Translations under genes and position numbers: made by a program
The notes under the pieces: generated by a model
The model's input: the letters and a program-made list of their open reading frames with translations, nothing else
The model's database searches: none
What the model was told of the DNA's origin: nothing
Assembly: GCA_964587735.1 (NCBI GenBank)
Contig: CAZPMB010000001.1
Coordinates: forward strand, 15,464 to 79,463
Length of the DNA stretch: 64,000 nucleotides
Source: an uncultured Candidatus Bathyarchaeia archaeon
Lineage (GTDB): Archaea; Thermoproteota; Bathyarchaeia; TCS64
Direction: 5' to 3'
Shown here: positions 1-30,314 of the stretch, piece by piece
Position numbering within the stretch: position 1 is the stretch's first letter
Layout: each line of letters begins with the position of its first letter

Positions 1-459
1 CCCGCGCCCAAGGTGCTCGAGGCCGGCCTCCATGTCCATGATCAGGACCTCATCCCTCTGGATGAGGAGGTGCTGGACAATCACCCTCAAGAGGGCGTTG
101 GCCGGGCACATGCAGCCGGTGTCGCCGCCCTTGACGGTGCCCATCACCAGAAGCTTCACGCCGTCAGGGCCGACTACCCCGAAATTCTCGACGACGTCGC
201 TCACCGTTGGAGTCAGCCTGAATAGCTGCCCGTAGGACCTCCCAGGCGCAACGCCCGTCTTCTCCTGAATCAGAGCCTCATTCTCCGAGAGGGGGACGAT
301 CTTGTCGGCTACATCGGATGGGATCCCGAGCGATGAGGCGGTGTTTATGTTGGGGTCGGCGTCAACGACAAGCACTTTATAGCCTTCCCTTGCGAGCAGC
401 CTCGCCAGGGTGCCCGAGACGAAGGTCTTGCCCACTCCGCCCTTTCCGGCTACGGCCAT
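1..459 (-). CDS. cooC: CooC/AcsF-type nickel-insertion ATPase (MinD/ParA family), 5' part only; the C-terminus runs off the window start
   Basis: Reverse complement of 444-459 gives MAVAGKGGVGKTFVSGTLARLL... (Walker A GKGGxGKT), and DADP and MDMEAGLEHL motifs match the downstream CooC paralog. The minus-strand frame is open to position 1. Confidence 0.75.
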   Translation of the reverse strand, partial: MAVAGKGGVGKTFVSGTLARLLAREGYKVLVVDADPNINTASSLGIPSDVADKIVPLSENEALIQEKTGVAPGRSYGQLFRLTPTVSDVVENFGVVGPDGVKLLVMGTVKGGDTGCMCPANALLRVIVQHLLIQRDEVLIMDMEAGLEHLGRG

Positions 460-466
460 CTTCAAC

Positions 467-1255
467 TTAGGTACCTCCTTTCAACACTTCTAAGCCGATC
501 CTATGGGCTATCTTTCCAACTGCCATGTAAGCGGGGGAGTCGTCGGGGAGACCGAGCAGGGGTCTGCCCGCCATGTTGTAGGATGCTATATTTTCATCCA
601 CGGGCAGGATTCCAGCCAGCTCTATTCCGATATCTTTGGACGCATTCTTAAGGACGCCCACCGTCCCCTTTTGGAAACAGTTGCCAACAAGGTAGATCTT
701 CTTGACGCCGATGTGAACCTCCTTGGCGAGATCCTTTATCCGCCTCGCCGTCTCCAAGCCCATCTTCGAGGGATCCGTGACGATGAGCATGACGTCGACA
801 TCCCTGTCCGTCCTCCGACTGAGGTGCTCCAGCCCGGCCTCCATGTCGAGAAGGGTTACGGAGTAGTTCCCAGTCAGGGTGTCGAGGATCCTTGTGAGGA
901 CGTTGTTGACGAAGCAGTAGCATCCCTCCCCCTCGGACCGGCCCATGGCGAGGAGGTCGAACCTCTCACCCTCGACGAGGGTCTCGAAGACCCATGCCTC
1001 TAATATGTCCCTCTTGGGGACCGTTGGAGACAGCGTGCCCTTCTCTATCTGGTTCTTCATCTCCCTGGAGGCTTGGCCGACGGTCCTGGCGACCTTCACG
1101 CCCAAGACATCGGGCAGGTTGGTCGAGGGGTCAGCGTCCACGACGAGAGGCGTCTCCCCCGTGTTCTGGATAATCCACTTGAGGAGTAGGGCCGTGAGGG
1201 TGGTCTTGCCGGCCCCTCCCTTCCCCGAGACGGAGATGACTGTCTTCCTCGCCAT
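467..1255 (-). CDS. cooC: CO dehydrogenase/ACS nickel-insertion accessory ATPase CooC
   Basis: 262 aa, MARKTVISVSGKGGAGKTTL Walker A, VVDADPSTNL, MEAGLEHLSRRT (MinD-type deviant Walker). Sits at the 3' end of the cdh operon. Confidence 0.85.
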   Translation of the reverse strand: MARKTVISVSGKGGAGKTTLTALLLKWIIQNTGETPLVVDADPSTNLPDVLGVKVARTVGQASREMKNQIEKGTLSPTVPKRDILEAWVFETLVEGERFDLLAMGRSEGEGCYCFVNNVLTRILDTLTGNYSVTLLDMEAGLEHLSRRTDRDVDVMLIVTDPSKMGLETARRIKDLAKEVHIGVKKIYLVGNCFQKGTVGVLKNASKDIGIELAGILPVDENIASYNMAGRPLLGLPDDSPAYMAVGKIAHRIGLEVLKGGT

Positions 1256-1297
1256 CTAGAATCTCATCCGGACGATGATAGAAAAAGGTTGGGGAAA

Positions 1298-2713
1298 CTA
1301 CTCCTCCGGGAAGGGCTTCCACTTCTCTTCGAGGTAGCTCGCTATTCCTGAAGAGTCGAGGGGTCCGACGGACACGGTCCATCCGGAGACCTCCTGGATC
1401 TCGCCGCTCAAGCGAGCTGCCCTACCCGGGATCACGAGGTGCCTGTGTTTCACGAGGTCCCCGACCTTGTAGCTCTTGATGGCCTCGCCGATGATGTCGG
1501 CGGTCAGCTTCCTGCCGGCAACCGCGCTCTCGACAGAGATCCCCTCGGTATCGACGACTACGAGGTAGCAGGTTACCTTCGCCGACTCGATGTCTGACGC
1601 CACTGTGTAGTAGGTCAGGGCGAAGTTGGTCGTCATCAGAACCGGGGATAGTTCGTTAGGCTCGCCGAAGGTCCTCACCCCCGCCTCGACCGAGACGGGT
1701 TTCCTGGGGTCTGTGTACAGGTTCTGCCTGAGGATGACGAGGGGGAGCATGGACCAGCCTGCCACGCTGTGGAGGATCAGCACGTCGGAGAACCTAGCCA
1801 CAAGGGCAGAGGCGATCACCGCCTCGTTCCACTCGTTGATGACGGGGTCCTCGGCCTTCTCGGCCCAAGCGACCATCGGTGCCCCGAGCATGGGGAAGCC
1901 GAGGAACTCCTCCTCCTCGTTGATGGCGTCCCACCTGAGGATAGTGAAGTTGTTTATGGTTGCGGAGAGCCCATCTTCGGCCTGGGTACCCGGATCTAGG
2001 ACGATGTCCTCGACGCCGTACTCCCAAAGGGTCCTCGCGATGGACTTGAGCGTGTTTAGGTCGAATGGGGCCGAGGCGACGATCGGGCACTTGTACATGA
2101 GCGCTAGGTCGGCCATCTCCCTCCAGTTATTTTTATTTGCCGCGTAGATGAGCGGGCGTTTGTCGCTGACCGAGGAGAGGCCATGTTCCATGACGGTCGG
2201 GTCCAGGGCGCAGAGGATGAGGGGCAAGTCGGTCAGCCCAGCCGCCTTCTTCACTGACGCCTGGAATTTTGCCGCGTTGTTTGAGGTCGACCTGACGGCG
2301 ATCATGTCGAGCCTCAGCTTCATCCCGATGTAGTCGTACTCGAAGCCGGAGGCAGTCTTTATCCTCGCCTCCAACTCCTCATCGGGCATCTCGTCGGTGA
2401 CGTCGATGGCTATCGCCGTTGGGTTGAAGTAGGTGAACTCGTGCCTGTACATTACGTACTCCCCTCCGAGCGTAGCCCTCCTTTCACCGGCGCCAACAAC
2501 AATCGACCGGACTGAGGGCTTCAGCAGGGCCCACAGCTTATCGAACGCGGCCTTGTTCTTCGCCTCGAGGAGTGGTGGGCAGCCCTGGAGCGTCGCCTCC
2601 CTGTTTACAAGCTTCGCGGCGAAGGCCATGCAGTTTGTCTCTCCGCACTCCTTGCAATTTGTCCCAGGCAGCAGCTTGTAGACCTCTATCGGGCTCAGTT
2701 CCTTCGCTGGCAT
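1298..2713 (-). CDS. cdhE: Acetyl-CoA decarbonylase/synthase gamma subunit (corrinoid iron-sulfur protein large subunit)
   Basis: 471 aa. N-terminal CKECGETNCMAFAAKL Fe-S motif followed by the TIM-barrel and corrinoid-binding regions typical of CdhE/AcsC. Operon context. Confidence 0.85.
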   Translation of the reverse strand: MPAKELSPIEVYKLLPGTNCKECGETNCMAFAAKLVNREATLQGCPPLLEAKNKAAFDKLWALLKPSVRSIVVGAGERRATLGGEYVMYRHEFTYFNPTAIAIDVTDEMPDEELEARIKTASGFEYDYIGMKLRLDMIAVRSTSNNAAKFQASVKKAAGLTDLPLILCALDPTVMEHGLSSVSDKRPLIYAANKNNWREMADLALMYKCPIVASAPFDLNTLKSIARTLWEYGVEDIVLDPGTQAEDGLSATINNFTILRWDAINEEEEFLGFPMLGAPMVAWAEKAEDPVINEWNEAVIASALVARFSDVLILHSVAGWSMLPLVILRQNLYTDPRKPVSVEAGVRTFGEPNELSPVLMTTNFALTYYTVASDIESAKVTCYLVVVDTEGISVESAVAGRKLTADIIGEAIKSYKVGDLVKHRHLVIPGRAARLSGEIQEVSGWTVSVGPLDSSGIASYLEEKWKPFPEE

Positions 2714-2723
2714 CAGATCCCCC

Positions 2724-3941
2724 CTAAATCTTGAGCGTGACCCACTCCGTGGTCTCGCTCGGCTTCTTTCCGCTCATCAGGTTGCTGATCATCTTCCCAA
2801 CCTCCCTTGCAGCGGCCGGATGCATCATCATGAAGTAGTCGACGCCTGCCAGGAGGAGCGTCTGCCCGGTGATCGTCTCCCATATCGGCCCCCTCAGCTC
2901 CCTCGGCGACCACTCGGGGCCCATCTTCATCCACGCCTCCCTCGCGGCCCACGCGTTTGTGGTGCCGGAGGAGAGGGGGTGGTTGAGCTCGGGGTCCCCC
3001 TTCAGCGCGGCGAGGCGGCTCCTCTCCATAACGGTGAAGGCGTAGTCGAGGCCGTAACCCAATGCGGCTGTGGTCGTATCCATCACGATCTGGTCCTTTG
3101 GGATGAAGTCGTACAGCTTGCGGTTCAACTCCCTAGCCTTGTTGACGTCCATCGAGGTGAAAGCGATGATCGTGTGGCCATTATCCTTCACGAACTTCGC
3201 CGACGCCTCTATGTCCATGTCCAGGGTCACCGAGTTGAAGAGCAGGCGCTCTCCCTTGGTGACCTCGGCGATGGCCTTGAAGACCTTGAGGTCCTTCTTC
3301 GGGTCGCCGCAACCGCCGATGGCTATGGGGACATCCACGGCCTGAAGCACGTCCTCAGTCTTTTTCACCGCGTACTCCGGCGAGGCACCCTCGATGAGGG
3401 GATCGATCGTCAGGAAGTGGAGGTTGATCATCTCAGCCCCGAACTTGTCGACACAGAGCCTCGCCCACTCCGCCGTGTCCCCGAGGACCTCCCTATAGTG
3501 ATCCTTTACAGCCTTTGCCAGAGGGACCTTTGGCCAGTCGAAGACGTCAAAGGCGATCACCGGCTTGTGGGGCGGCGGGTGCAGAAAGTTGTAGAAGGCC
3601 GGCGCAGACTCGCCACCGATCACCACGTGCGAACCCCTCGACCCACCCTCGGCCCTGGTCGCCCCGAGCCTGACCTCAACTATCTTGCCCGGGTACTCCT
3701 CTCGCGGTATCCCGACCTCAGCCTCGAGCAGCGAAGTCGGCTTTGCCTTCGCTGGAACGATCGTCGGCATCGCCTTCGGAGCTCCCATGATCATTCCGGG
3801 CGTCAGGCTGAGCTCCAGCTCGTCGAAGCTTATCTCAACGTCCTCGAGCTCGATCTGCTGGAACTTCGCCAGGGCCTCCAGGATATCAAGGCTGATCGGG
3901 AGGACTCCCTTTTTCTCGCCCTTCTCCGTCAAGGGGCTCAC
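2724..3941 (-). CDS. cdhD: Acetyl-CoA decarbonylase/synthase delta subunit (corrinoid Fe-S protein small subunit)
   Basis: 405 aa with CdhD/AcsD-like sequence. Its start overlaps the cdhC stop by 4 nt, suggesting translational coupling. Confidence 0.8.
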   Translation of the reverse strand: MSPLTEKGEKKGVLPISLDILEALAKFQQIELEDVEISFDELELSLTPGMIMGAPKAMPTIVPAKAKPTSLLEAEVGIPREEYPGKIVEVRLGATRAEGGSRGSHVVIGGESAPAFYNFLHPPPHKPVIAFDVFDWPKVPLAKAVKDHYREVLGDTAEWARLCVDKFGAEMINLHFLTIDPLIEGASPEYAVKKTEDVLQAVDVPIAIGGCGDPKKDLKVFKAIAEVTKGERLLFNSVTLDMDIEASAKFVKDNGHTIIAFTSMDVNKARELNRKLYDFIPKDQIVMDTTTAALGYGLDYAFTVMERSRLAALKGDPELNHPLSSGTTNAWAAREAWMKMGPEWSPRELRGPIWETITGQTLLLAGVDYFMMMHPAAAREVGKMISNLMSGKKPSETTEWVTLKI

Positions 3942-5323
3942 TTCCTCTCGACTTTTATGATCATCTTCTCCGCCCTGATCTTTGCGTTCTTCAGGATTAT
4001 CTTGAGGCTCATCCCGGCCGGCATACCCTGGATGGGTATAGCCGAGGCCGGCATCTCCAAAGTGGGGACGGTGATCTCCCCGGCCTCCTCAGCGGCCTTG
4101 ACTGGCGCTTCCACCCACTTGCCCACGATGGGGTGGTCCTTGTCCTTCAGCCATGCCCTCAGATCGTCGAGGCCCTTGACGTCGCTCTCTGTGGGTATCT
4201 TGTCCACGATCTCGGGGGGCATGAATTCCTTGATGCGCTCCTTGATCTCGACGGGCATCCAGACGACCCTGTTCCAGCCACCGTCGGCCTGGAGAAACTT
4301 GGGGCTGCGCATGTACTCTATGGATAAGCCGTGGAAGCCGTCGACCTGTCGTCCGCCAGCCGTGAGGTCGGAGATCGTGACGAAGCTGAGGCCATTCACG
4401 GTCTCCCCCTTGAAGTTTCGGTGGACGACTCCGAAGCCGTCGAGCTCCGGTATGTAGAACGCGCACCCCTCGAAGCATCCGCAGCTTGTGTGGGGGTACC
4501 CAAAGGCGGTGTAGAGCTGAACCCGCTCTATCTCTCCTAGGGATTTCTCCCTGATGACCTTGTCGACGCCGTCGTACTCACCCTTCTGCTGGTCGACGCA
4601 CTGCCCCTTGACTATCTCGAAGACGGGTCCCTTGGGGTCGACCTTGGCGGTTGCCCTGCCGTCGAACCAGCTTATGGCGCCGCAGTTCGCGTATCGCTGG
4701 GGGGTGATGACGCAGAGGTGGGTGGGTGCGAAGGACTGGCAGAGGCTGCAGCCGTAGAAGACATCTACCTCGTCGTCGCTCATGCCCCTGGCCCTGGCGT
4801 CCCTGGCCTCGTATATCTTCATCGCCTTCTCGTACCACTGCTTTATCAGACCGGGCTCTGTTATGAAGGTGATTTGGATCTTCTCGATGAACGGCATCTC
4901 GCTCTTGTACAGGCGCATAAGCACTTCCCCCAACAGCTTGAGGCTGTTGAAGCCCCGTTCGAATGACTTCTTGCTCAGCCTAATCTGGATGTCGTACCTC
5001 TGGTTCAGGTGCATGAAGCCCTCGATGAAGTTGGCGTACTCGTGGATCCGCCTCTCTATGACGCCCTCGAGATCCTTCTCGATCTCCTTTCCAGCGACCT
5101 CGATCAGGATCCCGAACGGATGGTTCGTGCCGGCCTCGAGCTCTGGGAGATCCTTATCGACAATTGAGATCTTACCGTCCTTTATCTCGTTGAGCGCCCT
5201 GGCCTGCACGAGCTCGAACTTGTACTGCTCCCGGGGTCCGCCGAGCTCCAACTGCATGTCGCGGCCCCTGATGCGCTCTCCCTCGTAGATGATCCCCACA
5301 CCCACGGGTATGTCCTCGAACAT
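3938..5323 (-). CDS. cdhC: Acetyl-CoA synthase catalytic (beta) subunit of the ACDS complex
   Basis: A-cluster motif HTSCGCFEGCAFYIPELDG. Start moved to the ATG at 5323 (MFEDIPVGV...), which is preceded by a GGAGGGG Shine-Dalgarno and lies 8 nt after the cdhB stop. The ORF track extends to a TTG at 5347. Confidence 0.88.
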   Translation of the reverse strand: MFEDIPVGVGIIYEGERIRGRDMQLELGGPREQYKFELVQARALNEIKDGKISIVDKDLPELEAGTNHPFGILIEVAGKEIEKDLEGVIERRIHEYANFIEGFMHLNQRYDIQIRLSKKSFERGFNSLKLLGEVLMRLYKSEMPFIEKIQITFITEPGLIKQWYEKAMKIYEARDARARGMSDDEVDVFYGCSLCQSFAPTHLCVITPQRYANCGAISWFDGRATAKVDPKGPVFEIVKGQCVDQQKGEYDGVDKVIREKSLGEIERVQLYTAFGYPHTSCGCFEGCAFYIPELDGFGVVHRNFKGETVNGLSFVTISDLTAGGRQVDGFHGLSIEYMRSPKFLQADGGWNRVVWMPVEIKERIKEFMPPEIVDKIPTESDVKGLDDLRAWLKDKDHPIVGKWVEAPVKAAEEAGEITVPTLEMPASAIPIQGMPAGMSLKIILKNAKIRAEKMIIKVERK

Positions 5324-5330
5324 CGACGTC

Positions 5331-5882
5331 TTATTTCCCCTCCTCAACCATCGACACTATTTTTTCTAAAGCCTCTTTCCACTCTTCCTCGCTCATGTTC
5401 CCCAGACTCCAGCTCGCGTTGGGCTGGTAGCTCGCGTCCAAAGAGATCGTTGTCAGGCCGGTCGCGAAGTGTTTCAGCCCGTTGAGCACCAGCCACTCAA
5501 GGTAGTACCGCAGTCCTGCGAAGACGACCAGATCGTACTGGCCCCCTCCGTCGAAACCCCTCCAGTTGGGGTCCCTAAGGCGGTCTCCAAGGTTCATCAG
5601 CGGCATGCTGTTCACCCCTTCGACCCTCCTATTCCTGAACTCGCTTATCAAATGTCCTGTGGCTGCGATCGTGACCTTTCTCTTCCTGTGTAGGCGTATT
5701 GCTGTGTCTATGAGGTCGCCGTCCTTTGTCTGGGTCCTCTTCGCCTCTGAGCCAACGACCAATAGGGGGCGCTTTGACTTCTTCACCATCGCAGCGACAA
5801 TCTCAGGCTTCGGGACGACGAATGCCTTCTTGGGGCCTGCAATCTCAGCGGTCTGCCCAAGGGTCGTTTTAGCGGACATCAC
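5331..5882 (-). CDS. cdhB: ACDS epsilon subunit
   Basis: 183 aa. Position and size match CdhB, and the ATGA start/stop overlaps cdhA. Confidence 0.7.
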   Translation of the reverse strand: MMSAKTTLGQTAEIAGPKKAFVVPKPEIVAAMVKKSKRPLLVVGSEAKRTQTKDGDLIDTAIRLHRKRKVTIAATGHLISEFRNRRVEGVNSMPLMNLGDRLRDPNWRGFDGGGQYDLVVFAGLRYYLEWLVLNGLKHFATGLTTISLDASYQPNASWSLGNMSEEEWKEALEKIVSMVEEGK

Positions 5883-8221
5883 GCCCGCCTCCTCACCATT
5901 CTCTCCAAGAGGGTCGGATCCGGCGTGGCGATCTTGTCCTCGACCCAGCCCTTCTCCCCAAGGACCCTCACAATCTCTTCCCTCATGGTGAAGGGGATGT
6001 CGGCCTGCCTCCTGACGTAGAGGTGGATGTCGTCGGGCATCGAGCCGTAGAGCCTCTGGTGGAGGTCGATGTAGTGGCTGAGCTTAACGGCCCTCCCCTT
6101 GTTCGTGTCGTTTGGGCGCATTGTGAGCTTGGCGACCACGACGATGGCCTCCTCGACCGTCTCGGCGGTGTAGAACAGGTGTTCAGGGGCCGGCCCAATG
6201 TAGACCTGCTCCCCATCCCTTGCGTTGTAGACGACCCAGTCCCCCTCGTTCTCCTTCCTGCCCAGAAGCATCCTCCTGTACTTGGATCCGTGGGGACCAA
6301 CAACGACGGGAATGCCGAGCCTCCAGCAGCCGGCGGCGATGGCGGCCGCCTTCTGGGACATCGCGCCCCAGGCGACGCCCACAGCACCGACCCTGTTGTG
6401 GATGTAGTCGGCTATCTCCTCGTAGTTCGCCCTAAGTGTGCGCTTAGCAAATATGTTTGCGATCTTTATTGCGGCCCCGGTGATGTGGGCATTAGCCACG
6501 CAGCTACCGACGTTCACTAGGCCCCCCGCGTCGAAGTTGCCAGGGTATTTCTCGTACAGGTTGAGGCCTTCCTCGTCTTTCGTCATAGCAATGCTCATCG
6601 CGGAGCACCCAGAGGTTACAACAATGAAGCGCCGCTTCAGGAACTCCTCCGCGATCCTAGCCAGGTCATCCCCGCCCTCGGGGTAATTGGCGCACCCCAC
6701 AAGGGCGACGACGCCGGGGATCTCGCCGAAGACTATGGGCTGGCCGACCTCCCTTATCTCTATGTCCTGGATGGCGCCCCGCCCTACCCTGATCGGGTAC
6801 TTCTCGGCGGCGATCTCCTGCTGGCTTGCTTTCGCCACCATCGATATTATGGGCATACCAACAGGGCACGCGCCCTCGCAACGGCCACATCCAACGCACA
6901 GATCATATAGGTCCGACAGTGGTTCGTAGTCACCGCTCTTCGCCGCTTGTAGAGCTTCGGCGATCTCCAGGTTGTTGGGACAGGCTCGCTCGCATTCCAA
7001 GCAGTTCCTGCACTTCTCGGCTAGCTCGGAGAGCTCTTTCAGTTCGAATGCCTTCGTTCCCCTGCGCTTTCTGACGCCGATAACAGTCTTGGCAGAGACC
7101 TCACCCACCTTCCTAGGCTCGATTATGAGTGCACCGTTTGCGGCTCCGGAGACGAGATCGTTCACGATGACATCGGGATCGTCATCGGTCCTATCCGGAA
7201 GGCCGAGGCAGCTCTTCTCGCTCGTGGCGATGACTGGTATGTCTAGCCGCTTGGCCTCTTCCAGCACGTCGGTCCTGAGGCACTGCTCGTCGACGACGAT
7301 GAGGTCAGGTATCCCAGAGCGGATGAACCTTAGCTGCCACGATATTGGGCCGATTATCTTTGAGCCCTTGTTGTACCGGCTCATGTCGTGGGCTGTGCAG
7401 CAGAGCCCCCCGACCTCAACCTCTCCGAAGAGGTTGTTCTCCATGAGATAGTCGATTATATCGACGCTCGGTAGCACGTTGTGGCCTATGCACATTATGA
7501 CCGGTTTCTTCGGGTCTATCGTGCCGTATCCGAGCTGCGCGAGCGGCGCCTCGGGGTCGCCCTTCGGGAATCCCAGTGTTGCGATCTGCATGATGTCCGC
7601 GACCTCGAGAGCCACATGGTCGAGCATCCCGGCGTGGAAGACCTTCGACTCGAAGTCTAAGTTGCTTCCCTCCTGCCCGGTGTGGGTGGCTGCCATTAGC
7701 TGAACGATCTGGGCCTCGACGTACTCGAGGGCGTCCTCAAGGTCTCTCAATGTCTTGGGCTTTATGCCGCAGACAAGCCGAACATGAGGTGCCTCGACTG
7801 CGGTGTTCAGCGCTACGTCGAGGGGGGCGTCCCTCCCATGCTCCTCCATGATGTGGTCGAGCATGTGCCTGGCGTGGGCCGCGTGGGTTGCGGCTCCGAT
7901 GCAGCAGGCTATCAGGACGATCCTGGACTGCTGAGCGGCCATTGATATACCACAGGCGCCACGCTTGTCGCCCGTCAGGTCGCACTTTCCAAAGGTGCAG
8001 AGGCAGCAGAGGTCGCAGAAGGGCATGTAGAACGGCTTGTATCGCTCTAGGAGCTTCCTGTCCCAGCTCCTGAGTGCGCCGACGCTGGGCATGGGGGTGG
8101 GGCCCATGGGCTCCTCCCATGTCTCGTCGTAGATCCTGCCGACCTCTATCTCCAGCCCCTTGAAGGTGCCGAGAGTCGAGGAGAGTTCATCGATCTTGAG
8201 CTTCAGATCCCTCTTGGACAA
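5879..8221 (-). CDS. cdhA: ACDS alpha subunit (Ni-Fe-S CO dehydrogenase catalytic subunit with ferredoxin-like insert)
   Basis: 780 aa. Cys-rich N-terminus FCDLCCLCTFGKCDL...ACGIS, 2x[4Fe-4S] insert CRNCLECERACP / CVGCGRCEGACP, and C-cluster region CTAHD... Confidence 0.9.
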   Translation of the reverse strand: MSKRDLKLKIDELSSTLGTFKGLEIEVGRIYDETWEEPMGPTPMPSVGALRSWDRKLLERYKPFYMPFCDLCCLCTFGKCDLTGDKRGACGISMAAQQSRIVLIACCIGAATHAAHARHMLDHIMEEHGRDAPLDVALNTAVEAPHVRLVCGIKPKTLRDLEDALEYVEAQIVQLMAATHTGQEGSNLDFESKVFHAGMLDHVALEVADIMQIATLGFPKGDPEAPLAQLGYGTIDPKKPVIMCIGHNVLPSVDIIDYLMENNLFGEVEVGGLCCTAHDMSRYNKGSKIIGPISWQLRFIRSGIPDLIVVDEQCLRTDVLEEAKRLDIPVIATSEKSCLGLPDRTDDDPDVIVNDLVSGAANGALIIEPRKVGEVSAKTVIGVRKRRGTKAFELKELSELAEKCRNCLECERACPNNLEIAEALQAAKSGDYEPLSDLYDLCVGCGRCEGACPVGMPIISMVAKASQQEIAAEKYPIRVGRGAIQDIEIREVGQPIVFGEIPGVVALVGCANYPEGGDDLARIAEEFLKRRFIVVTSGCSAMSIAMTKDEEGLNLYEKYPGNFDAGGLVNVGSCVANAHITGAAIKIANIFAKRTLRANYEEIADYIHNRVGAVGVAWGAMSQKAAAIAAGCWRLGIPVVVGPHGSKYRRMLLGRKENEGDWVVYNARDGEQVYIGPAPEHLFYTAETVEEAIVVVAKLTMRPNDTNKGRAVKLSHYIDLHQRLYGSMPDDIHLYVRRQADIPFTMREEIVRVLGEKGWVEDKIATPDPTLLERMVRRRA

Positions 8222-23179: not shown

Positions 23180-24442
23180 ATGGAGCACGTGATCGTCGAG
23201 GATAAACTTTCGAATGGTATCAGGGTCGTAGTGGAGCCCATGCCCACCAGGAGAGTATTGTCGTTGGGTCTATGGGTGAGGGCAGGATCTAGGGACGAGC
23301 AAGAAAATATCCAAGGCTGCTCGCACCTCATCGAGCACATGGTGTTTAAAGGAACAGAGAAGAGGTCGGCTGAGCAGATCTCCACTGCGATAGAAGAGAG
23401 GGGAGGGTACCTGAACGCCTTCACGGATAGAGACTTAACCTGCTTCACGGCTCAAACCCTCCAAGAGGACGCGGAGCTCGCGATCGATGTACTGTCAGAC
23501 ATGATTCAGGCGCCCCTCTTCCAAGAGGAGGACCTTAAAAGGGAGAAACAGGTGGTGTTGGAAGAGATAAGCAGGAAGGACGACAACCCTGAGCACCTCA
23601 TCGAGGATCTGTCGAACGAAGCTGTTTGGAAAGGTAGTCAAGAGGCCCATTCAATCCTAGGAACAAAAGAATCGATCAATAAAGTATTCAGAAATCAGCT
23701 TGTAGCATACCATAACAACTTTTACACCCCAAATAACATTGTCGTCACAGCCGCAGGTGGCATAGAGCCCGGCAAATTATTCGATACACTGGATAATTAT
23801 TTCATAGACGAGAAAACCGGGCATGTATCAACTCGTAAAAAACCGGTGTTCAAAAGAACCGCAAAGTTCCATGAAAGGGATTCTAGCCAAGTCCAATTGA
23901 GCATAGCCTCTGAGGGATTAGCCTTTAAAGATCGGAAGCGTTATGCCCTCTCGTTGCTGAACTCCTATCTTGGAGTTGGCTCCAGCTCGCAGCTTTTCCT
24001 GAAGGTCAGAGAGAAGGAAGGCCTTGTTTATTCCATCTATACAGACGATAAATCCATGGAGGACTGCGGTCTCTACAGAATATTCGCCGGGACTAACGTA
24101 TCGAATGTGGAGAAGGTCTTCGACATCATACTAAAGGAGTTAGAGCGGCTCCAGAATGAGGGACTCACGGCCAAGGAATTGGAAAAAAACAAACAGAAGA
24201 TGAGGGGAATGCTCGGCCTCAGCTTCGAGAGCGTAAGGACGAGGATGTACCACCTTGGAATGTCCACTTTAAGGCTCGGGAAGCCTCAAACATTCGAAGA
24301 AATCATTGAAAACATGGAGAAGGTTACCCTTGATGAGGTCAATCAGCTGGCTGCCGAAACATTCGATAGACGTAGTTTATCCTATATCACCTTGGGCCTG
24401 CCATGTGAGATTGCCACAAGACTGAAAAAAACCTTATTCTAA
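23180..24442 (+). CDS. M16 (pitrilysin/insulinase) family zinc peptidase
   Basis: HxxEH motif GCSHLIEHMVFKGT plus a downstream E. Start set at MEHVIVEDKLSNGIRVV. Confidence 0.8.
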   Translation: MEHVIVEDKLSNGIRVVVEPMPTRRVLSLGLWVRAGSRDEQENIQGCSHLIEHMVFKGTEKRSAEQISTAIEERGGYLNAFTDRDLTCFTAQTLQEDAELAIDVLSDMIQAPLFQEEDLKREKQVVLEEISRKDDNPEHLIEDLSNEAVWKGSQEAHSILGTKESINKVFRNQLVAYHNNFYTPNNIVVTAAGGIEPGKLFDTLDNYFIDEKTGHVSTRKKPVFKRTAKFHERDSSQVQLSIASEGLAFKDRKRYALSLLNSYLGVGSSSQLFLKVREKEGLVYSIYTDDKSMEDCGLYRIFAGTNVSNVEKVFDIILKELERLQNEGLTAKELEKNKQKMRGMLGLSFESVRTRMYHLGMSTLRLGKPQTFEEIIENMEKVTLDEVNQLAAETFDRRSLSYITLGLPCEIATRLKKTLF

Positions 24443-25215
24443 ACTATTTTGTACGGCTCGGCGGTGTTCCACAGTTGTTCGAAGTAGATCTTAGCTATCA
24501 TAGTCAAACCCACATGGTCCGACCAGATCGCAATGCTCTGCTCCTCAGCCACGCTCCTTCCTAGAAATAGGAGAGACTCCTTGCCATCGACCACAACTCC
24601 TCCTCCGAACATCTCCTGCCTTACCCTTATCTCCGCAAATTGGGCGATATATCTCTCCAAAGAGACGATGAGATCCTTTGTCGTTAGAAGACGGATATAG
24701 ACCCTTTTATCACGCAGGAGTTCAAGAGATGGTAGCATCATAGGCGTGAGCTCAGGTGGGATCTCTGGGAGGGCCACCATGAGCTCCCTCTGCACCTTCT
24801 GGGAGATCTCCTTGAGGGTTGAGGCTATATTCTCCATGCCCCTTATAATCCAGATCTCGGGCTTCTCCTTGACACCCCTCCTCTCATAAAGGGGCTGCAG
24901 CTCTGATACAACAACCTCCCTGAACTGCTCGAACCGATTCTCTTTTCGCAATCTCTCTGACTCAAGGGCCTCAACTGGTGGCCTGGGATAATACAGCCTT
25001 GGACGCCCACCCCTAATCTCGACCCACCCTTTCTGATCGAGGCTGTCGAGAACACTGTAGACCTTGGAATATGGTATGGAAGTCTGCTCGCTCACCTGGC
25101 CGGCTGTGAGCTCCCCGGACTTAACTAAGGCAACATAAGCCAAGCCCTCGTACTCCGTGAGCCCGATCTCCTTTAGGGACCTTTCCACCTTCGTGCTCAA
25201 CGGCGGTTCGGGCAA
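24439..25215 (-). CDS. TrmB-family transcriptional regulator
   Basis: N-terminal wHTH LTEYEGLAYVALVKSGELTAGQVSEQTSIPYSKVYSVLDSLDQKGWV plus the TrmB C-terminal domain. Divergent from the radical SAM gene. Confidence 0.7.
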   Translation of the reverse strand: MPEPPLSTKVERSLKEIGLTEYEGLAYVALVKSGELTAGQVSEQTSIPYSKVYSVLDSLDQKGWVEIRGGRPRLYYPRPPVEALESERLRKENRFEQFREVVVSELQPLYERRGVKEKPEIWIIRGMENIASTLKEISQKVQRELMVALPEIPPELTPMMLPSLELLRDKRVYIRLLTTKDLIVSLERYIAQFAEIRVRQEMFGGGVVVDGKESLLFLGRSVAEEQSIAIWSDHVGLTMIAKIYFEQLWNTAEPYKIV

Positions 25216-25278: not shown

Positions 25279-26886
25279 ATGTTCACCAAACAAGGGGGGA
25301 TAATTGAAAGAAGCTTAAATAATTCCCGATCAGATGAACATTTTACAAGTTGGCCTCGAGGTGATCGGTTGAGGGAGATCAAGCAAACGGAAAGCCTGTG
25401 CCCTGAATGTCTGAAAGTACTATCAGCCACGATATTCGAGGACAATGGAAGGGTATACATGCGTAAGGTGTGCCTCGAGCACGGGGAGTACACCGATCTT
25501 TATTGGGACAGCTACGAGGACTACGAAAGGGCGCTACGTTTCGATCACCTTGGTACGAAGCTCAACAATCCGAGGACCAAGGTGAAGAAGGGCTGCCCCT
25601 TCGACTGCGGCATATGCCCCGAGCACAAGTCCCACACGGTCCTAGCCATCGTGGACGTCACCAACAGGTGCAATCTCAGGTGCCCAATATGCTTTGCTCA
25701 TGCAGGGGCCGCTGGTTACCTTTACGAGCCAACAGTCGAAGAGATAAGGGGCATGCTAGGGAATCTGATGGCGAATGATCCGGTCCCCCCTCCGGCCCTT
25801 CAGTTCAGTGGCGGCGAGCCCACCGTGCGGGATGACCTCCCGAACCTCGTGAGAATGGCAAGGGAAATGGGCTTCTTCCACATCGAAGTCAACTCGAATG
25901 GAATAAGGATGGCGGAGAGCGTCGACTACTGTAAGGCACTCAAGGACGCAGGGGTCAGCACGGTCTACCTACAGTTTGACTGCGTTACCGCTGAGCCGTA
26001 CATCGTTGCAAGGGGGCACAACCTTCTACCAATAAAGCTGAAGGCCCTTGAGAACCTCAAGGAAGCCGGCTTCCGGAGCGTCGTGCTCGTGCCCGTGCTC
26101 GTCAGAGGGGTAAACGACGACCAGGTAGGAGACATCATACGCTTTGCAATCGAGCACAACGACGTCGTGAGGTGCGTTAACTTCCAACCGGTGGCATTCA
26201 CGGGCCGGATAAACAAAGAGGATAGGGAGAAAATGCGAATTACCATCCCCGACCTTATTCGCTTGGCTGAGGAGCAGACGGACGGGCTCATCAAACGCTC
26301 CGATTGGTATCCAGTCCCATCGGTTGTCCCCTTTGTCGAGTTCATGAGCAATCTGAAGAACCGAAATTACGTGAGCTTCATGGCCCATCCCCACTGCGGC
26401 ATGGCGACATACCTAATAGTAGAAGGTGATAAAGTAAAACCAATCACCCAATACTTCGATGTCGATGGATTCATAGAGGCCCTTGAGATCGCGAACAAGA
26501 GATTGAAGAAGGGGCAAAAAACAAGGGCGAAGATGACTATGGCGTCGGCCGCCCTGAAAAAGATAGACATGGGCATGTTCCGAAAGTACATCCTTCCAGT
26601 TATTACCCGCGGTGACTACGAGAGCCTCAGCGAACTGCACCACAGGGTGATAATGATCGGCTCTATGCATTTCATGGACCCCTACAACTTCGACCTTGAG
26701 AGGGTAAACAGGTGCGTCATACATTATGCGACGCCGGATGGCAAGATCATCCCATTCTGCACAATGAACACATTGCACAGGAAGAATATCGAGAAGAAAT
26801 TCGCACAACCTCTGGACGCCTCCAAGCTCACACCCTTAGCCAATATCGATGAGCTGATGGGAAGGAAAGAAGCGGCTGACGAGTGA
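25279..26886 (+). CDS. Radical SAM enzyme, Tes/GDGT-MAS-like (candidate tetraether lipid synthase)
   Basis: 535 aa. N-terminal Cys cluster CPEC...CLEH, then CPFDCGICPEH and VTNRCNLRCPICFA (two CX3CX2C motifs), then GGEPT. The architecture is like archaeal MJ0619-type radical SAM proteins. Confidence 0.6.
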   Translation: MFTKQGGIIERSLNNSRSDEHFTSWPRGDRLREIKQTESLCPECLKVLSATIFEDNGRVYMRKVCLEHGEYTDLYWDSYEDYERALRFDHLGTKLNNPRTKVKKGCPFDCGICPEHKSHTVLAIVDVTNRCNLRCPICFAHAGAAGYLYEPTVEEIRGMLGNLMANDPVPPPALQFSGGEPTVRDDLPNLVRMAREMGFFHIEVNSNGIRMAESVDYCKALKDAGVSTVYLQFDCVTAEPYIVARGHNLLPIKLKALENLKEAGFRSVVLVPVLVRGVNDDQVGDIIRFAIEHNDVVRCVNFQPVAFTGRINKEDREKMRITIPDLIRLAEEQTDGLIKRSDWYPVPSVVPFVEFMSNLKNRNYVSFMAHPHCGMATYLIVEGDKVKPITQYFDVDGFIEALEIANKRLKKGQKTRAKMTMASAALKKIDMGMFRKYILPVITRGDYESLSELHHRVIMIGSMHFMDPYNFDLERVNRCVIHYATPDGKIIPFCTMNTLHRKNIEKKFAQPLDASKLTPLANIDELMGRKEAADE

Positions 26887-27080: not shown

Positions 27081-27602
27081 TTAAATTTTTAAACGATTTT
27101 TAATGGCGATAGAGATAACCACACCTATCCCAGAGCCTATCGCCTGTGGAATGTTTATTATTATTTCAGCTGCGGCAGCCTCTACCCCCATGCCTAGGAA
27201 GAAAGCCTCGGCGATAAAATATCCTAATATCAAGACGACGCCACCCGCAAACCAAGCAATTACGGTTCTATATATTGTGCGTTTTTCTGACTTCCCCGCC
27301 AAGTATCCTACAACATACCCCTCAGCGCCTTTAATTATCGTGGTGGGAATGACGAATATCATCCAACCGCCGAGTAGATCCGCAAGGCCGGACCCAAGGC
27401 CTCCGGCGATTGCGCCAATAACTGGTCCAAAGATAAGAGCCGTCGTGACGACAACAGCGTCTCCTAAATTGAAATACCCTCCAGTCGCAGGAAAGGGTAT
27501 CGTGAAGATCATTGTTCCTATGGTTGTTAACGCGCCCATCACCGCAATGGCCGCGATTTCCCGGGTCCCGAAACGACTAATCTCCGTCATAAAACTCACC
27601 AA
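27081..27602 (-). CDS. ECF-transporter S-component-like small membrane protein (ThiW/QueT-like)
   Basis: 173 aa, ~5 transmembrane helices, Gly-rich GGLGSGLADLLGG motif. Confidence 0.5.
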   Translation of the reverse strand: MVSFMTEISRFGTREIAAIAVMGALTTIGTMIFTIPFPATGGYFNLGDAVVVTTALIFGPVIGAIAGGLGSGLADLLGGWMIFVIPTTIIKGAEGYVVGYLAGKSEKRTIYRTVIAWFAGGVVLILGYFIAEAFFLGMGVEAAAAEIIINIPQAIGSGIGVVISIAIKNRLKI

Positions 27603-27910
27603 TCACCTTCATTACATATTCTAAATCTTTGCTGAAACAGCTATGGCGCTTTCCGATGTGCCACTTGCCTAAGACGTATGTGTGTGCCGAACACGCATCG
27701 ACTGCGATATAACTAAACGCGATACCTCCAGCCACAGCAAGCTCAGAATCTGTCTCAGGCATATTACTACTATAGTTATAACTAATATATTTAAAGCCTG
27801 ATGGTTTGTAATGTCATCTGCGTATTCATTTGGGAAGGCAGAAGGTCTTACCTTTTAAAAATCAGAACTTCATTCTCACTGAGGCGAGAATTAGCTTCGA
27901 ACGAGATACG

Positions 27911-29323
27911 CTAAAGCAATACCCTCAAATCGTCAAGGGCATCAAGGACGCGGCGACCTTTCTCAGTTATCTTCAGCAGCCGGCGCTTACCCTCCGCTTG
28001 AGGGGTTACCAAACCCTTCTCCTCGAGATCCGACAGGTGCTGGTAGACGGCTCCTAAGGTCATCTCACGCCCCAAGCCCTTCCAAAGGGCATAGCCATAG
28101 GTATTCCTGCGCGAAATTGCCTTCAAAAGGCGCTCCTTCGTCGCCAGCCTCAAGCCAAGACCCGGAGACCTCCTCTTCCGGCTGAGGCTTTTTAGGATGT
28201 CGTTGGTCTTCAACCCACTGCTAGTGATAATGCTGACGACCGAATCGGTTCGGTCCATCGAACCCATCTCCATCAGCTTAGGAAGGCAAGCAACGGTCGC
28301 GGCGCTCGCCGGCTCCACGAACATGCCCTCAGATCTGGCGATCTCCTTCTCGAAGAACAGCATCTCATCGTCCTTTACGGACACAGAGATGCCATCAGAT
28401 TCCCTTATATCTTTCAGAGCGGCGACCCCATATTTTGGCTCAGAGACCTTTATCGCCATCGCTACAGTATTCACATTTTCTAGCTCCAGGGGCTCTCCAG
28501 CTCCGAGCCTGAACGCCTCCGTTATGGGGGAGCAACCAGCCGCCTGAACCCCGATCAACCGGGGTTTCTTCTCGATGCGCCCCATCTCTTCGAGCTCTTT
28601 GAAACCCTTCCAAATGGAGTGGATGGTGACGCCGCTGCCCATCGCCACGACCACCCAGTCAGGGACTTCACCCTGCTCCGATATCTCGTATGAGATTGTC
28701 TTGAGAGCTTCCATCGATAGTGGGTTGAGCTCTGTCGTTGCTTGGTACCAACCCGTCTCAAGGGCCAGGTCGATCGCCCTCGTAATCGCCTCTTCGATGT
28801 TTTCACTCTCCTCGTCTACAGAGGCGTCATACGCGATCATCTGTGCGAGTTTACCGATATCCACATCGCTTGGGACTATGAGGTGGCATGCGACATCCTC
28901 TTTTGCAGAGTAGGCGGCGAGAGACGCGCCGTGATTACCATTGGTGGCACAGATTATAGAGTCAAACCCTTTCCCGACGGCATCAGAGAGGATCAGCGAG
29001 GCGGAACGATCCTTGTAAGAGCTTGTCGGATTCCTTGTTTCATCCTTCAGGATCAATGTCTTGAGGTTGAGATTTTCCTCGAGCCTCTTCGCCTCCCAGA
29101 GCGGCGTCCCTCCCTCGCCCATGCTGACAGGTTTGTGGACCCGAGGCATCACGAGACGATACCTCCAGAAAGCGAGAGGCCCCGTAAACTTAACGGATCT
29201 TAAGTAGTCCGTTTCGAGCGAATACTCTAGCATCCCTCCACAATTTGAGCAGAAGAACGATTTTCCATCATCTACAGATTTCAAACCGCACAGAGGGCAC
29301 TTTAATTGAAATGGGGAGGGCAT
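27911..29323 (-). CDS. thrC: Threonine synthase-family PLP enzyme with N-terminal zinc ribbon, apparently fused to a C-terminal PadR-like wHTH domain
   Basis: CPLCG...CSNCGG ribbon; PLP-lysine motif SSYKDRSAS; C-terminal ~90 aa TYGYALWKGLGREMTLGAVYQHLSDLEEKGLV...RRLLKITEKGRRVL is PadR-like. Confidence 0.7.
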   Translation of the reverse strand: MPSPFQLKCPLCGLKSVDDGKSFFCSNCGGMLEYSLETDYLRSVKFTGPLAFWRYRLVMPRVHKPVSMGEGGTPLWEAKRLEENLNLKTLILKDETRNPTSSYKDRSASLILSDAVGKGFDSIICATNGNHGASLAAYSAKEDVACHLIVPSDVDIGKLAQMIAYDASVDEESENIEEAITRAIDLALETGWYQATTELNPLSMEALKTISYEISEQGEVPDWVVVAMGSGVTIHSIWKGFKELEEMGRIEKKPRLIGVQAAGCSPITEAFRLGAGEPLELENVNTVAMAIKVSEPKYGVAALKDIRESDGISVSVKDDEMLFFEKEIARSEGMFVEPASAATVACLPKLMEMGSMDRTDSVVSIITSSGLKTNDILKSLSRKRRSPGLGLRLATKERLLKAISRRNTYGYALWKGLGREMTLGAVYQHLSDLEEKGLVTPQAEGKRRLLKITEKGRRVLDALDDLRVLL

Positions 29324-29427
29324 CTCTCGTATAACTATTGGAAAGCAACTGTTTAAGTGTTAAGCGTATCCGTCATCCTTTTATTCCCAATTCCACATGG
29401 AGGGCTTGAATACCGGGAAATAAATCC

Positions 29428-29736
29428 ATGAAGCTTAGCGAGTTGCGGCCGGGCATGGAGAATGTAGACCTTAGAGTCAAGGTCTTAAAGCTAAAAGAGC
29501 CCAGGCGCGTGAAGACGAACAAAGGCGTCACCCATGTTCTGGTTGAGGGTGAGGTCGAGGACGAGACAGGTAGGCTGGGGCTCACCGTCTGGAACGAGTT
29601 AATCGAACAACTGAAGAATGTAGACGCGGGTAGCAGAGTGGACCTGAAGAACTGCTTCATAACCTCATTTAGAGGAGTCCTTAGCGTGAATGTTGGACGG
29701 GACTCAAAGATAGAAAAACCCGAGGAGAGAGCGTGA
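29428..29736 (+). CDS. OB-fold nucleic-acid-binding protein (SSB/RPA-like)
   Basis: 102 aa: VDLRVKVLKLKEPRRVKTNKGVTHVLVEGEVEDETGRLGLTVWNEL... beta-rich OB pattern. Confidence 0.5.
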   Translation: MKLSELRPGMENVDLRVKVLKLKEPRRVKTNKGVTHVLVEGEVEDETGRLGLTVWNELIEQLKNVDAGSRVDLKNCFITSFRGVLSVNVGRDSKIEKPEERA

Positions 29737-30314
29737 TGGAGGATCGTATTTTGGATGAGATCCGGCTTGAAGTAAAAAGACTAACGCCCCACAATGGTAC
29801 ACACGGCTTCGATCACACGTTGAGAGTCTACAAAACTTGCATGAGGATCGGCTTCTCAACCGGAGCCGACCTCTCAGTCCTCCTGCCGGCAGCCCTACTC
29901 CATGATGTCGCCAGGGAAGAGGCCGAACACAACAACGCAAGCTCCGTGAAGGCTCGTGAGATCCTCATGTCCCTAAACTATCCTCGTGAAAAGATGGAAT
30001 TGGTGGCCAGGGCAATCTCCACTCACAGCTTCTCAGGCAGGCTAACGCCAGATTCTCTCGAGGCGGAGATCCTCTCAGACGCCGACAAGCTCGACGCAAT
30101 GGGCGCCCTGGGCGTTTACAGGGCCGCCATGTATAGCGGGGAGAAGGGCAGGCCAATAGAGGAATTTACCGCCCACTTCTATGAGAAGCTGCTGAAGCTC
30201 AAGGAGAAGCTATACACAGACGAGGCAAAACGTATCGCTGATTCCAAACATAGATTCATGCTGTCTTTCTTGGAGCAGCTAGGCAAGGAGCTATCGCTCG
30301 ATTCTCAGGTTTGA
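29733..30314 (+). CDS. HD-domain phosphohydrolase
   Basis: H...HD motif HGFDHTLRV...LLHDVARE...DADKLDAMGALG. Overlaps the OB gene stop by 4 nt. Confidence 0.75.
   Translation: MMEDRILDEIRLEVKRLTPHNGTHGFDHTLRVYKTCMRIGFSTGADLSVLLPAALLHDVAREEAEHNNASSVKAREILMSLNYPREKMELVARAISTHSFSGRLTPDSLEAEILSDADKLDAMGALGVYRAAMYSGEKGRPIEEFTAHFYEKLLKLKEKLYTDEAKRIADSKHRFMLSFLEQLGKELSLDSQV

Follow-up and report, generated by a model that had tools for sequence, protein, structure and literature searches.

A candidate vitamin B6-responsive transcription regulator of Bathyarchaeia that joins a threonine synthase-like domain to a PadR-type winged helix

RbkR and ThiR are archaeal one-component regulators that combine an enzyme domain from a vitamin pathway with a DNA-binding domain and control genes for making or taking up the same vitamin; the vitamin regulator ThiR carries a ThiN-like domain. 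RbkR is documented as bifunctional (PMC8305020). In Bacteria, transcription factors of the MocR type include PdxR, whose regulons contain pdxST, pdxK and pdxU, and MocR transcription factors have been described as "not present in Archaea" (PMC5320631). A 2023 survey of pyridoxal 5'-phosphate (PLP) metabolism in Bacteria and Archaea left the regulators unanalysed (PMC9997740). The literature that we searched, with incomplete coverage, contained no description of any archaeal vitamin B6 regulator, nor of the protein family reported here as a regulator. We analysed a stretch of 64,000 nucleotides (64 kb; hereafter the window) from an uncultured Candidatus Bathyarchaeia archaeon (GenBank assembly GCA_964587735.1, contig CAZPMB010000001.1), in which a single gene encodes a threonine synthase (ThrC)-like, PLP-fold domain fused to a PadR-type winged helix-turn-helix (Table 1). 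We consider it probable that the fused protein is a one-component, PLP- or B6-responsive transcription regulator of a B6 importer and that it is not the threonine synthase of the cell.

The fused open reading frame starts with ATG, contains neither a frameshift nor an internal stop, and includes the motifs TSSYKDRSAS (residues 100-109), TYGYALWKG, HLSDLEEKGLV and KITEKGRRVL. Pfam profile searches detected the PALP domain at 237 bits (cutoff 35) and PadR (PF03551) at 35.7 bits (cutoff 27), with residues 399-461 aligned to positions 1-74 of the 75-position PadR profile. Pfam zinc-ribbon matches for the N-terminus were weak; the four cysteines of this region are invariant across the 94 homologues that we aligned. 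An AlphaFold model built from these 94 homologues (mean predicted local distance difference test score, pLDDT, 86) shows a ThrC-like core, beta strands at residues 5-8 and 33-36 of the zinc-ribbon region and, at residues 392-469, a winged helix with helix-helix-helix-strand-strand-helix topology, in which a single helix (454-469) follows the wing. In the model the winged helix lies C-terminal to an enzyme-like module of 390 residues. The linker between the two scored below 50 in pLDDT, and its motif is conserved in the homologues. In Foldseek the modelled core matched ThrC structures with template modelling (TM) scores of 0.82-0.85, normalised to the target. The closest solved protein is the ThrC 2d1f (E = 6e-55), and solved threonine synthases cover residues 47-376 only; the top solved-structure sequence matches of the C-terminal 82 residues are PadR-family regulators, at a weak E near 0.004. 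Conservation of the linker and of the winged helix is similar to that of the enzyme core.

The fusion is widespread. Both Pfam domains were present in all of the 120 closest clusters (57-100% identity), and a scan of one genome per species returned more than 505 relatives of the fused gene. Genome-locus counts given below refer to the best 80 of these relatives, and neighbour counts to these 80 plus the window (81). Almost all of the 80 loci are labelled Bathyarchaeia, two standing under the names of bacterial metagenome-assembled genomes, and the reading frame reaches residue ~470 in nearly all of them, with a few broken by contig ends. Split genes or an assembly artefact are ruled out by the single frame, the lack of internal stops and the retention of the fusion in more than 500 species genomes. 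The preliminary description of this DNA had proposed a single 470-residue frame with an N-terminal zinc ribbon and a C-terminal PadR segment, and these three claims are borne out: nothing separates the frame into two genes, the cysteines are invariant, both Pfam domains score above threshold, and the closest relatives are fused as well. The NCBIfam model NF004170 (PRK05638, "threonine synthase") has 442 positions and matches the protein from end to end (residues 7-463 to model positions 2-441), at 350.3 bits and below its curated cutoff of 421. The fusion architecture is therefore already catalogued, and what is new is its meaning and not the fusion itself.

We searched 1.84 billion representatives with HMMER and classified the best 150 matches with a local profile of the C-terminal domain. 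This yielded 74 full-length proteins with the winged helix and 68 without it. In the column of the Schiff-base lysine (K104 of our protein, between the conserved NPTGSF and DR), 67 of the 68 unfused proteins have lysine. Fused proteins carry L, R, I, V, M, F, T and similar residues in the same column, and among the best 150 matches only the clade of our protein and one Lokiarchaeal cluster retain lysine. The lysine-less fused proteins come from Odin-, Baldr-, Hermod- and Promethearchaeota, Thermococcus chitonophagus and Thermoprotei, and their source names are mostly "threonine synthase", in some cases "pyridoxal-phosphate dependent enzyme".

Two types of genome locus can be distinguished by this residue. 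The 37 K-type loci, at least 56% identical to our protein, have the motifs FKDRS, GNHGAS and MGSG[AV]T, and the 43 R-type loci (~50% identity) have FRDR[CA], GN[LM]GAS and MGSGGT. Lysine occupies column 104 in all 120 close homologues and in all 37 K-type loci. The lysine codons are AAG or AAA and the arginine codons mostly AGA or AGG, one transition apart. Fused proteins, the lysine-less ones included, conserve the PLP-contact columns N130, G229, G231, T367 and D105-R106, which suggests that the pocket is still in use.

In neighbour-joining trees of the PALP domain, which are simple distance trees, the K-type clade was recovered in 60 of 60 bootstraps. It joins the R-type Bathyarchaeia (58/60) and four Asgard representatives in one clade (51/60), and this clade lies inside a larger arginine-bearing group (44/60). 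Judged from these sequences, our protein belongs to a lysine-keeping exception nested among apparent pseudoenzymes. Its clade may have either kept or regained K104, the latter through a single AGR-to-AAR transition, and the tree is compatible with both. The tree topology suggested a single fusion event; we rejected this as a conclusion, since monophyly of the fused proteins appeared in 1 of 60 replicates and one unfused sequence was nested among them. Such low support decides neither the number of fusions nor between retention and regain of the lysine.

The fused protein is probably not a biosynthetic threonine synthase. In the stretch NPTSSYKDRS it holds K104 at the position of the canonical NPTGSFKDRG motif, and it has TNGNHGAS, TTELNPLS and GSGVT where canonical ThrC has STGNTSAS, NSxNPxR and GNAGN, as well as the acidic E198 in place of a serine. 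The canonical versions of these three motifs are found in the ThrC structures of the PDB and in unfused Bathyarchaeial ThrC. Several of the positions probably correspond to contacts to the substrate phosphate in the Thermus structure. Because other unfused archaeal ThrC-like proteins vary at these positions, the motif argument is suggestive and not decisive. The "complete ThrC-like PLP fold" of the preliminary description thus stands for the fold and the lysine and falls for the canonical motifs. An unfused canonical ThrC of 411 residues, which has the zinc ribbon, NPTGSFKDRG, STGNTSAS, NSINPYR and GNAGN and groups with the solved ThrCs, is encoded near the fused gene in six R-type loci (L066, L069, L186, L188, L198 and L123). 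It is divergent from the Arg-type fused gene in both L066 (257-1492, minus strand) and L069 (1697-2932, minus strand), and it may be a remnant of an ancestral duplication or a sign of co-regulation. A canonical thrC elsewhere in the genome, a point left open by the preliminary description, is therefore documented beside Arg-type genes in these loci; the 64-kb window contains neither a second ThrC nor threonine-pathway genes, and none of the 37 K-type loci has a canonical thrC within about 6 kb.

Annotation models do not settle the question of activity. The thrC model TIGR00260 gives our protein 186.5 bits (cutoff 167.1), and its cutoff is also passed by the lysine-less proteins P0271, P0289, P0294 and L057, so the score does not discriminate activity. 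NF004170 scores 800 bits for P0142 of Thermococcus chitonophagus (WP_068578498.1) and 458 for the Odin/Baldr-type P0271, both of which have arginine in the lysine column. Since its best scorers lack the catalytic lysine, the family name "threonine synthase" is very probably wrong.

These data bear on the idea that the protein is a bifunctional enzyme-regulator, that is, a working PLP enzyme (a threonine synthase or another beta/gamma-replacement or elimination enzyme) that also regulates, comparable to RbkR, BirA and PutA. The invariance of K104 in the close homologues and K-type loci, its covariation with His131 and S368, the TIGR00260 score and the lack of a canonical thrC in the window and around the K-type loci all speak for catalysis. 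However, relatives without the lysine surround the clade in the tree and have the same operator and target (described below), the model score is non-discriminating, the canonical motifs are replaced, with E198 for serine, and threonine-pathway neighbours are absent. We regard a bifunctional protein as rather unlikely. Of the two explanations in the preliminary description, a moonlighting enzyme or regulator and a ThrC fold recruited for ligand sensing, the second is better supported, by the loss of the lysine in most of the wider family, the coexisting thrC in some genomes, and the B6-linked partner and cis-element; moonlighting catalysis may still occur in the lysine-keeping clade. On the same grounds (lysine loss, coexisting thrC and B6-linked context), the label of an amino-acid biosynthetic enzyme is probably mistaken as the primary role.

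The most constant neighbour of the fused gene encodes an energy-coupling factor (ECF)-type transporter S-component (PF07155). In neighbour clustering this gene came immediately 3' of the fused gene, in the same orientation, at 61 of 81 loci, K- and R-types alike, and three more PF07155 neighbours had been masked by an antisense shadow open reading frame or a missed gene call. Upstream genes are wholly different between K- and R-type loci. The pairing also occurs in the Lokiarchaeal lysine-retaining form and in another Asgard lineage; in a subclade with a hydrophobic residue in the lysine column, the PF07155 gene is divergent from the fused gene and an AIR (aminoimidazole ribonucleotide) synthase-like gene lies alongside. 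A neighbour family, F48, that had appeared to be a new partner proved to be an antisense shadow reading frame of the ECF gene.

The single meaningful PDB relative of the S-component in the window is chain S of 4HZU (E = 3e-15, 59.8 bits), the HmpT/PdxU2 protein of L. brevis, whose bound substrate was identified as pyridoxamine (PMC4860826). Characterised prokaryotic B6 importers comprise only PdxU and PdxU2/HmpT, both members of PF07155, and P5PA (PMC9997740). The conserved HmpT pocket consists of E41, H84, Q87, Y120, N140 and Q143, and W76 also touches the ligand (PMC4860826). When mapped through the HmpT alignment, Y120, N140 and Q143 correspond to the identical residues Y128, N150 and Q153 of the window protein. 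E41 is conservatively replaced by D48 (D or E in the family) and the aromatic W76 is retained as F83 (Y, F or W), whereas H84 and Q87 are changed to K91 and E94; the mapped residues of the window protein are conserved across the 61-member family. The pocket, as aligned, is related to that of HmpT and not identical to it, and we propose that the S-component imports B6 vitamers.

In 38 R-type loci the ECF gene is followed by an AIR-synthase-related gene (PF00586 and PF02769; for example L077, 2424-3431). Such a gene also lies 3' of pdxS-pdxT in L079 (10329-11336) and beside the ECF gene in L206 (3334-4347). It scores below the cutoffs for ThiL (112 bits) and HypE (137 bits) and might be an unrecognised B6 salvage kinase. 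Alternative B6 kinases are still to be found (PMC9997740).

A palindrome marks the start of the ECF gene. In the spacers between the two genes we observed the R-type palindrome TAGTATAGTT-NN-AACTATACTA in 26 of 36 unique sequences and the K-type palindrome TATAGTT-NN-AACTATA, often as two tandem copies, in 12 of 14, with a maximum of 2 in shuffled sequences in either case. The core TAGTT-NN-AACTA occurs once in the whole 64-kb window even with one mismatch allowed. Related loci totalling 783 kb have 49 exact core matches, every one of them at the fused-gene/ECF locus; a relaxed 16-mer had 77 matches in the 80 genome loci, of which 75 were at the ECF promoter and the other two at a previously missed ECF gene. 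At loci with a displaced or inverted ECF gene (L006, L045, L054 and L060) the palindrome travels with the start of that gene, which identifies it as a promoter element and not as a terminator of the fused gene; its position before a pdxS that has no fused gene upstream likewise excludes a terminator. A TTTAA(A/T) box abuts the 5' side of the palindrome in most related spacers, and the palindrome usually ends 7-40 nt before the start codon. A site between a TATA-like box and the gene start is where archaeal repressors block initiation.

The leader that follows the candidate operator in the window (27603-27767) is similarly long in the closest relative, L001. A 61-residue reading frame that overlaps this region (27577-27762, minus strand), which starts 10 nt after the operator core, is probably no gene, as it is not conserved in L001. 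Rfam had no matches anywhere in the window, so no RNA element was seen in the spacer.

The association extends to metagenomes. A scan with the 20-base R-type palindrome gave 120 sites. At about 105 of these an ECF gene reads away from the palindrome, in 89 cases with the fused gene on the opposite side. Chance in AT-rich bacterial or phage DNA probably accounts for most of the remaining sites, among them those next to genes for a pilin-like protein, an integrase, an intein-containing reductase and a nitroreductase. Adjacency and operator co-occur in more than 150 loci. This co-occurrence, together with the absence of threonine-pathway context, is hard to reconcile with a plain housekeeping role in threonine synthesis, in which the winged helix would serve structure or oligomerisation and the neighbouring palindrome would belong to another factor or to the core promoter. 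In favour of that explanation, public annotations call all close homologues threonine synthase and curated NCBIfam models span the whole length of the protein. However, NF004170 gives its top scores to proteins without the catalytic lysine, purifying selection acts on the winged helix about as strongly as on the core, and the predicted recognition helix has stayed conserved between phyla. We consider a plain threonine synthase highly improbable.

The operator also precedes genes of PLP synthesis. In L079 the order is fused gene, operator, pdxS-pdxT, with the latter genes in the usual place of the ECF gene; in L104 pdxS follows the fused gene directly in this place, again with the operator between. 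The upstream context in L079 (families F34 and F43, then the fused gene) is that of L075 and L077, which carry the ECF gene at this position, so targets have been swapped behind one operator. In L173 pdxS is preceded at about 14 nt by a perfect palindrome and followed by pdxT; the products of the two genes score 494 bits (NF003215, cutoff 395) and 214 bits (TIGR03800, cutoff 106). L173 and L079 are closely related (PdxS 94% identical) and have upstream genes in common (F34 and an ABC-2-type permease). The fused gene sits between the permease and operator-pdxS in L079, and L173 retains the perfect operator without the fused gene at that place.

The pdxST loci also help to weigh a mechanism like that of GabR, in which PLP would be a permanent cofactor, the sensed ligand would be an amino acid, be it threonine, homoserine or another, that forms an external aldimine, and the ECF cargo would not be B6. 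In its intact lysine and PLP site our protein resembles GabR, whose signal is PLP plus gamma-aminobutyric acid (PMC5320631); its ThrC ancestry suggests an amino-acid pocket, and the transporter pocket departs from HmpT at two positions. Yet the relatives with arginine or hydrophobic residues cannot form an internal aldimine and share the operator and target, and the operator before pdxST points to B6 itself. In addition, ECF S-components are typically micronutrient importers, and PF07155 includes known B6 importers (PMC9997740). An amino-acid sensor of this kind therefore appears improbable.

The same half-site and spacing, AGTT-N2-AACT, are found in Asgard archaea as in Bathyarchaeia. Upstream of the PF07155 gene, L208 has CAAGTT-AT-AACTTG, and L204 has two tandem copies, TAAGTT-TG-AACTTA and TATAAGTT-GA-AACTTATA. 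The predicted recognition helix reads (A/S)(V/I)YQHL.EL in K-type, R-type, Lokiarchaeal, other Asgard and hydrophobic-subclade proteins, with slight differences in Thermococcus (AVHQHI) and Thermoprotei (AVYQNL). In Thermococcus chitonophagus (L081, CP015193.1, 3414-7326) the Arg-type fused gene follows genes for a proteasome subunit and an aCPSF1-like KH/beta-CASP nuclease and precedes an amino-acid-kinase-family gene; no operator-like palindrome was found near it.

From the computed architecture and its conservation, the lysine loss in most relatives and the association of the operator with its targets, we infer DNA binding, dimerisation, repression as opposed to activation, PLP as the effector and the substrate of the transporter. 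In the proposed mechanism, the ThrC-derived domain would bind PLP, in our protein through an internal aldimine with K104, and would report the B6 status of the cell. It would presumably dimerise as ThrC does, and the two PadR-type winged helices, on flexible basic linkers, could then occupy the half-sites of TAGTT-N2-AACTA, which are 7-12 bp apart from centre to centre according to the half-site length assumed. Occupancy between the TATA-like box and the start of the transcription unit would block initiation, such that the PLP-loaded protein would repress B6 uptake and, in related genomes, also PLP synthesis through pdxST. For the family as a whole, we see evenly balanced chances that it is the missing archaeal B6 (PLP) regulator: a mostly lysine-less, ThrC-derived sensor with a PadR winged helix, which represses PdxU2-like import and pdxST through AGTT-N2-AACT from Bathyarchaeia to Asgard archaea and is convergent with MocR/PdxR. 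Our protein and its clade would then be either covalent PLP sensors or true enzyme-regulator hybrids.

Several observations weigh against B6-responsive repression of the transporter. HmpT was earlier predicted to transport hydroxymethylpyrimidine. Two of the six HmpT pocket residues differ here, and the transporter substrate is deduced from a similarity of 59.8 bits to HmpT. With the lysine, His131 and an undamaged PLP site all present, our protein may be catalytic. Operators before pdxST were observed at three Arg-type loci only, two of which are closely related, and at no locus of the K-type clade. In the window the distance from operator to ECF start is about 170 nt and not the 7-40 nt of most loci, and the palindrome could be bound by another transcription factor. 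Finally, Thermococcus, Odin/Baldr-type contigs and one Thermoprotei contig have no ECF or pdx neighbour, so the function may vary across the family.

Table 1. Features of the fused gene, its partner and the intervening spacer in the window.
Feature	Positions	Strand	Basis or remark
Fused gene, coding sequence, 470 amino acids	27911..29323	-	Zinc ribbon, ThrC-like PLP-fold domain, linker and PadR-type winged helix; candidate B6/PLP-responsive regulator
N-terminal Cys4 zinc ribbon, residues ~5-36 (C9, C12, C25, C28)	29216..29311	-	Cysteine conservation, modelled strands
Fold-type-II PLP domain (PALP), ThrC-like, residues 66-367; proposed PLP sensor	28223..29128	-	Pfam, PDB, Foldseek
Codon AAG for K104, PLP Schiff-base lysine column	29012..29014	-	Alignment
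Basic, probably flexible linker, residues 371-393; family consensus KRRKSPGLGS	28145..28213	-	pLDDT, conserved motif
PadR-type winged helix-turn-helix, residues 394-470	27914..28144	-	Pfam, model topology, PDB sequence matches
Predicted recognition helix, residues 423-435, LGAVYQHLSDLEE	28019..28057	-	Model and alignment
ECF-type transporter S-component (PF07155), PdxU2/HmpT-like; proposed target and B6-vitamer importer	27081..27602	-	Pfam, 114.7 bits
Candidate operator, imperfect 22-bp palindrome	27768..27789	.	Perfect core TAGTT-AT-AACTA at 27773-27784
TATA-like box TTTAAATATA, directly 5' of operator	27786..27795	-	Read from sequence; promoter role inferred
CTTAAAC box about 30 nt 5' of the fused-gene ATG; candidate TATA element	29351..29357	-	Conserved in K-type upstream regions

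Upstream of the fused gene, the K-type regions share two AT-rich boxes, ATAAAAG and CTTAAAC, which we read as back-to-back TATA elements. No inverted repeat exceeded shuffled sequences in K- or R-type upstream regions, and hence no autoregulatory operator was seen 5' of the fused gene. A gene pair for an Ssb-like OB-fold protein and an HD-domain protein (29428-30314, plus strand) is divergent from the fused gene and is kept upstream of K-type loci only. Elsewhere in the window, a TrmB-family regulator gene (24439-25215, minus strand) is divergent from a gene for a radical-SAM protein (25279-26886, plus strand) with an HMPTM-type N-terminal zinc ribbon (PF23545). Positions 1-8000 have about 60% G+C and a negative AT skew, compared to ~50% G+C elsewhere (42-55% per 2-kb bin), and the first ~8 kb could be a compositionally distinct segment.

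If our proposal is right, it provides a concrete candidate for an archaeal B6 regulator, with operator and targets. It would also correct a systematic error, in that hundreds of archaeal "threonine synthases", some of them in a curated NCBIfam equivalog, lack the catalytic lysine; for Bathyarchaeia, Asgard archaea and Thermococcales, this misannotation distorts what metabolic reconstructions say about threonine prototrophy. The family would further represent a clean case of convergent evolution, with unrelated PLP folds and unrelated winged helices arriving at the same circuit, and its Lys/Arg series would be natural material for studying the transition from enzyme to sensor.

Compared with described proteins, the fused protein combines familiar elements in a different arrangement. 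It has the fold of canonical ThrC (TIGR00260; 2d1f, 2zsj, 1uim and 6cgq), 31-36% identity to it, the Schiff-base lysine and an N-terminal zinc ribbon that is also present in canonical Bathyarchaeial ThrC. Unlike ThrC, it has a winged helix, lacks the motifs of the canonical clade and any threonine-pathway context, and has lysine-less closest relatives. It resembles the PadR family in a winged helix that scores above the Pfam threshold and has PadR proteins as its top solved relatives. In classical PadR proteins, however, the winged helix is N-terminal and accompanied by its own dimerisation helices, whereas here it stands at the C-terminus, and the ThrC-like domain would provide the dimer contacts. 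The palindrome also differs from the operator type of the PadR family, ATGT-N8-ACAT. RbkR and ThiR respond to other vitamins, riboflavin and thiamine, with other enzyme folds and an N-terminal helix-turn-helix, and the sensor proposed here derives from a PLP-using enzyme and not from an enzyme of the B6 pathway.

The closest parallel is MocR/PdxR, in which a PLP-enzyme fold is likewise joined by a flexible linker to a winged helix and PLP is the signal, as we propose here. PdxR regulons contain pdxST, pdxK and pdxU (PMC5320631); the candidate operator described here lies before a PdxU2-like gene and, in three Arg-type loci, before pdxS or pdxST. The parts are non-homologous: MocR proteins carry a fold type I aminotransferase domain and an N-terminal GntR-type winged helix-turn-helix, whereas the fused protein has a fold type II domain and a C-terminal PadR-type one. 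The fused family adds an N-terminal zinc ribbon, and most of its members are without the PLP lysine. Moreover, apo-PdxR activates pdxST, whereas here a simple inverted repeat overlaps an archaeal promoter, which suggests a repressor. In conclusion, the circuit logic is known from MocR/PdxR and, for other vitamins, from RbkR and ThiR, and the component parts found here are unrelated to those.

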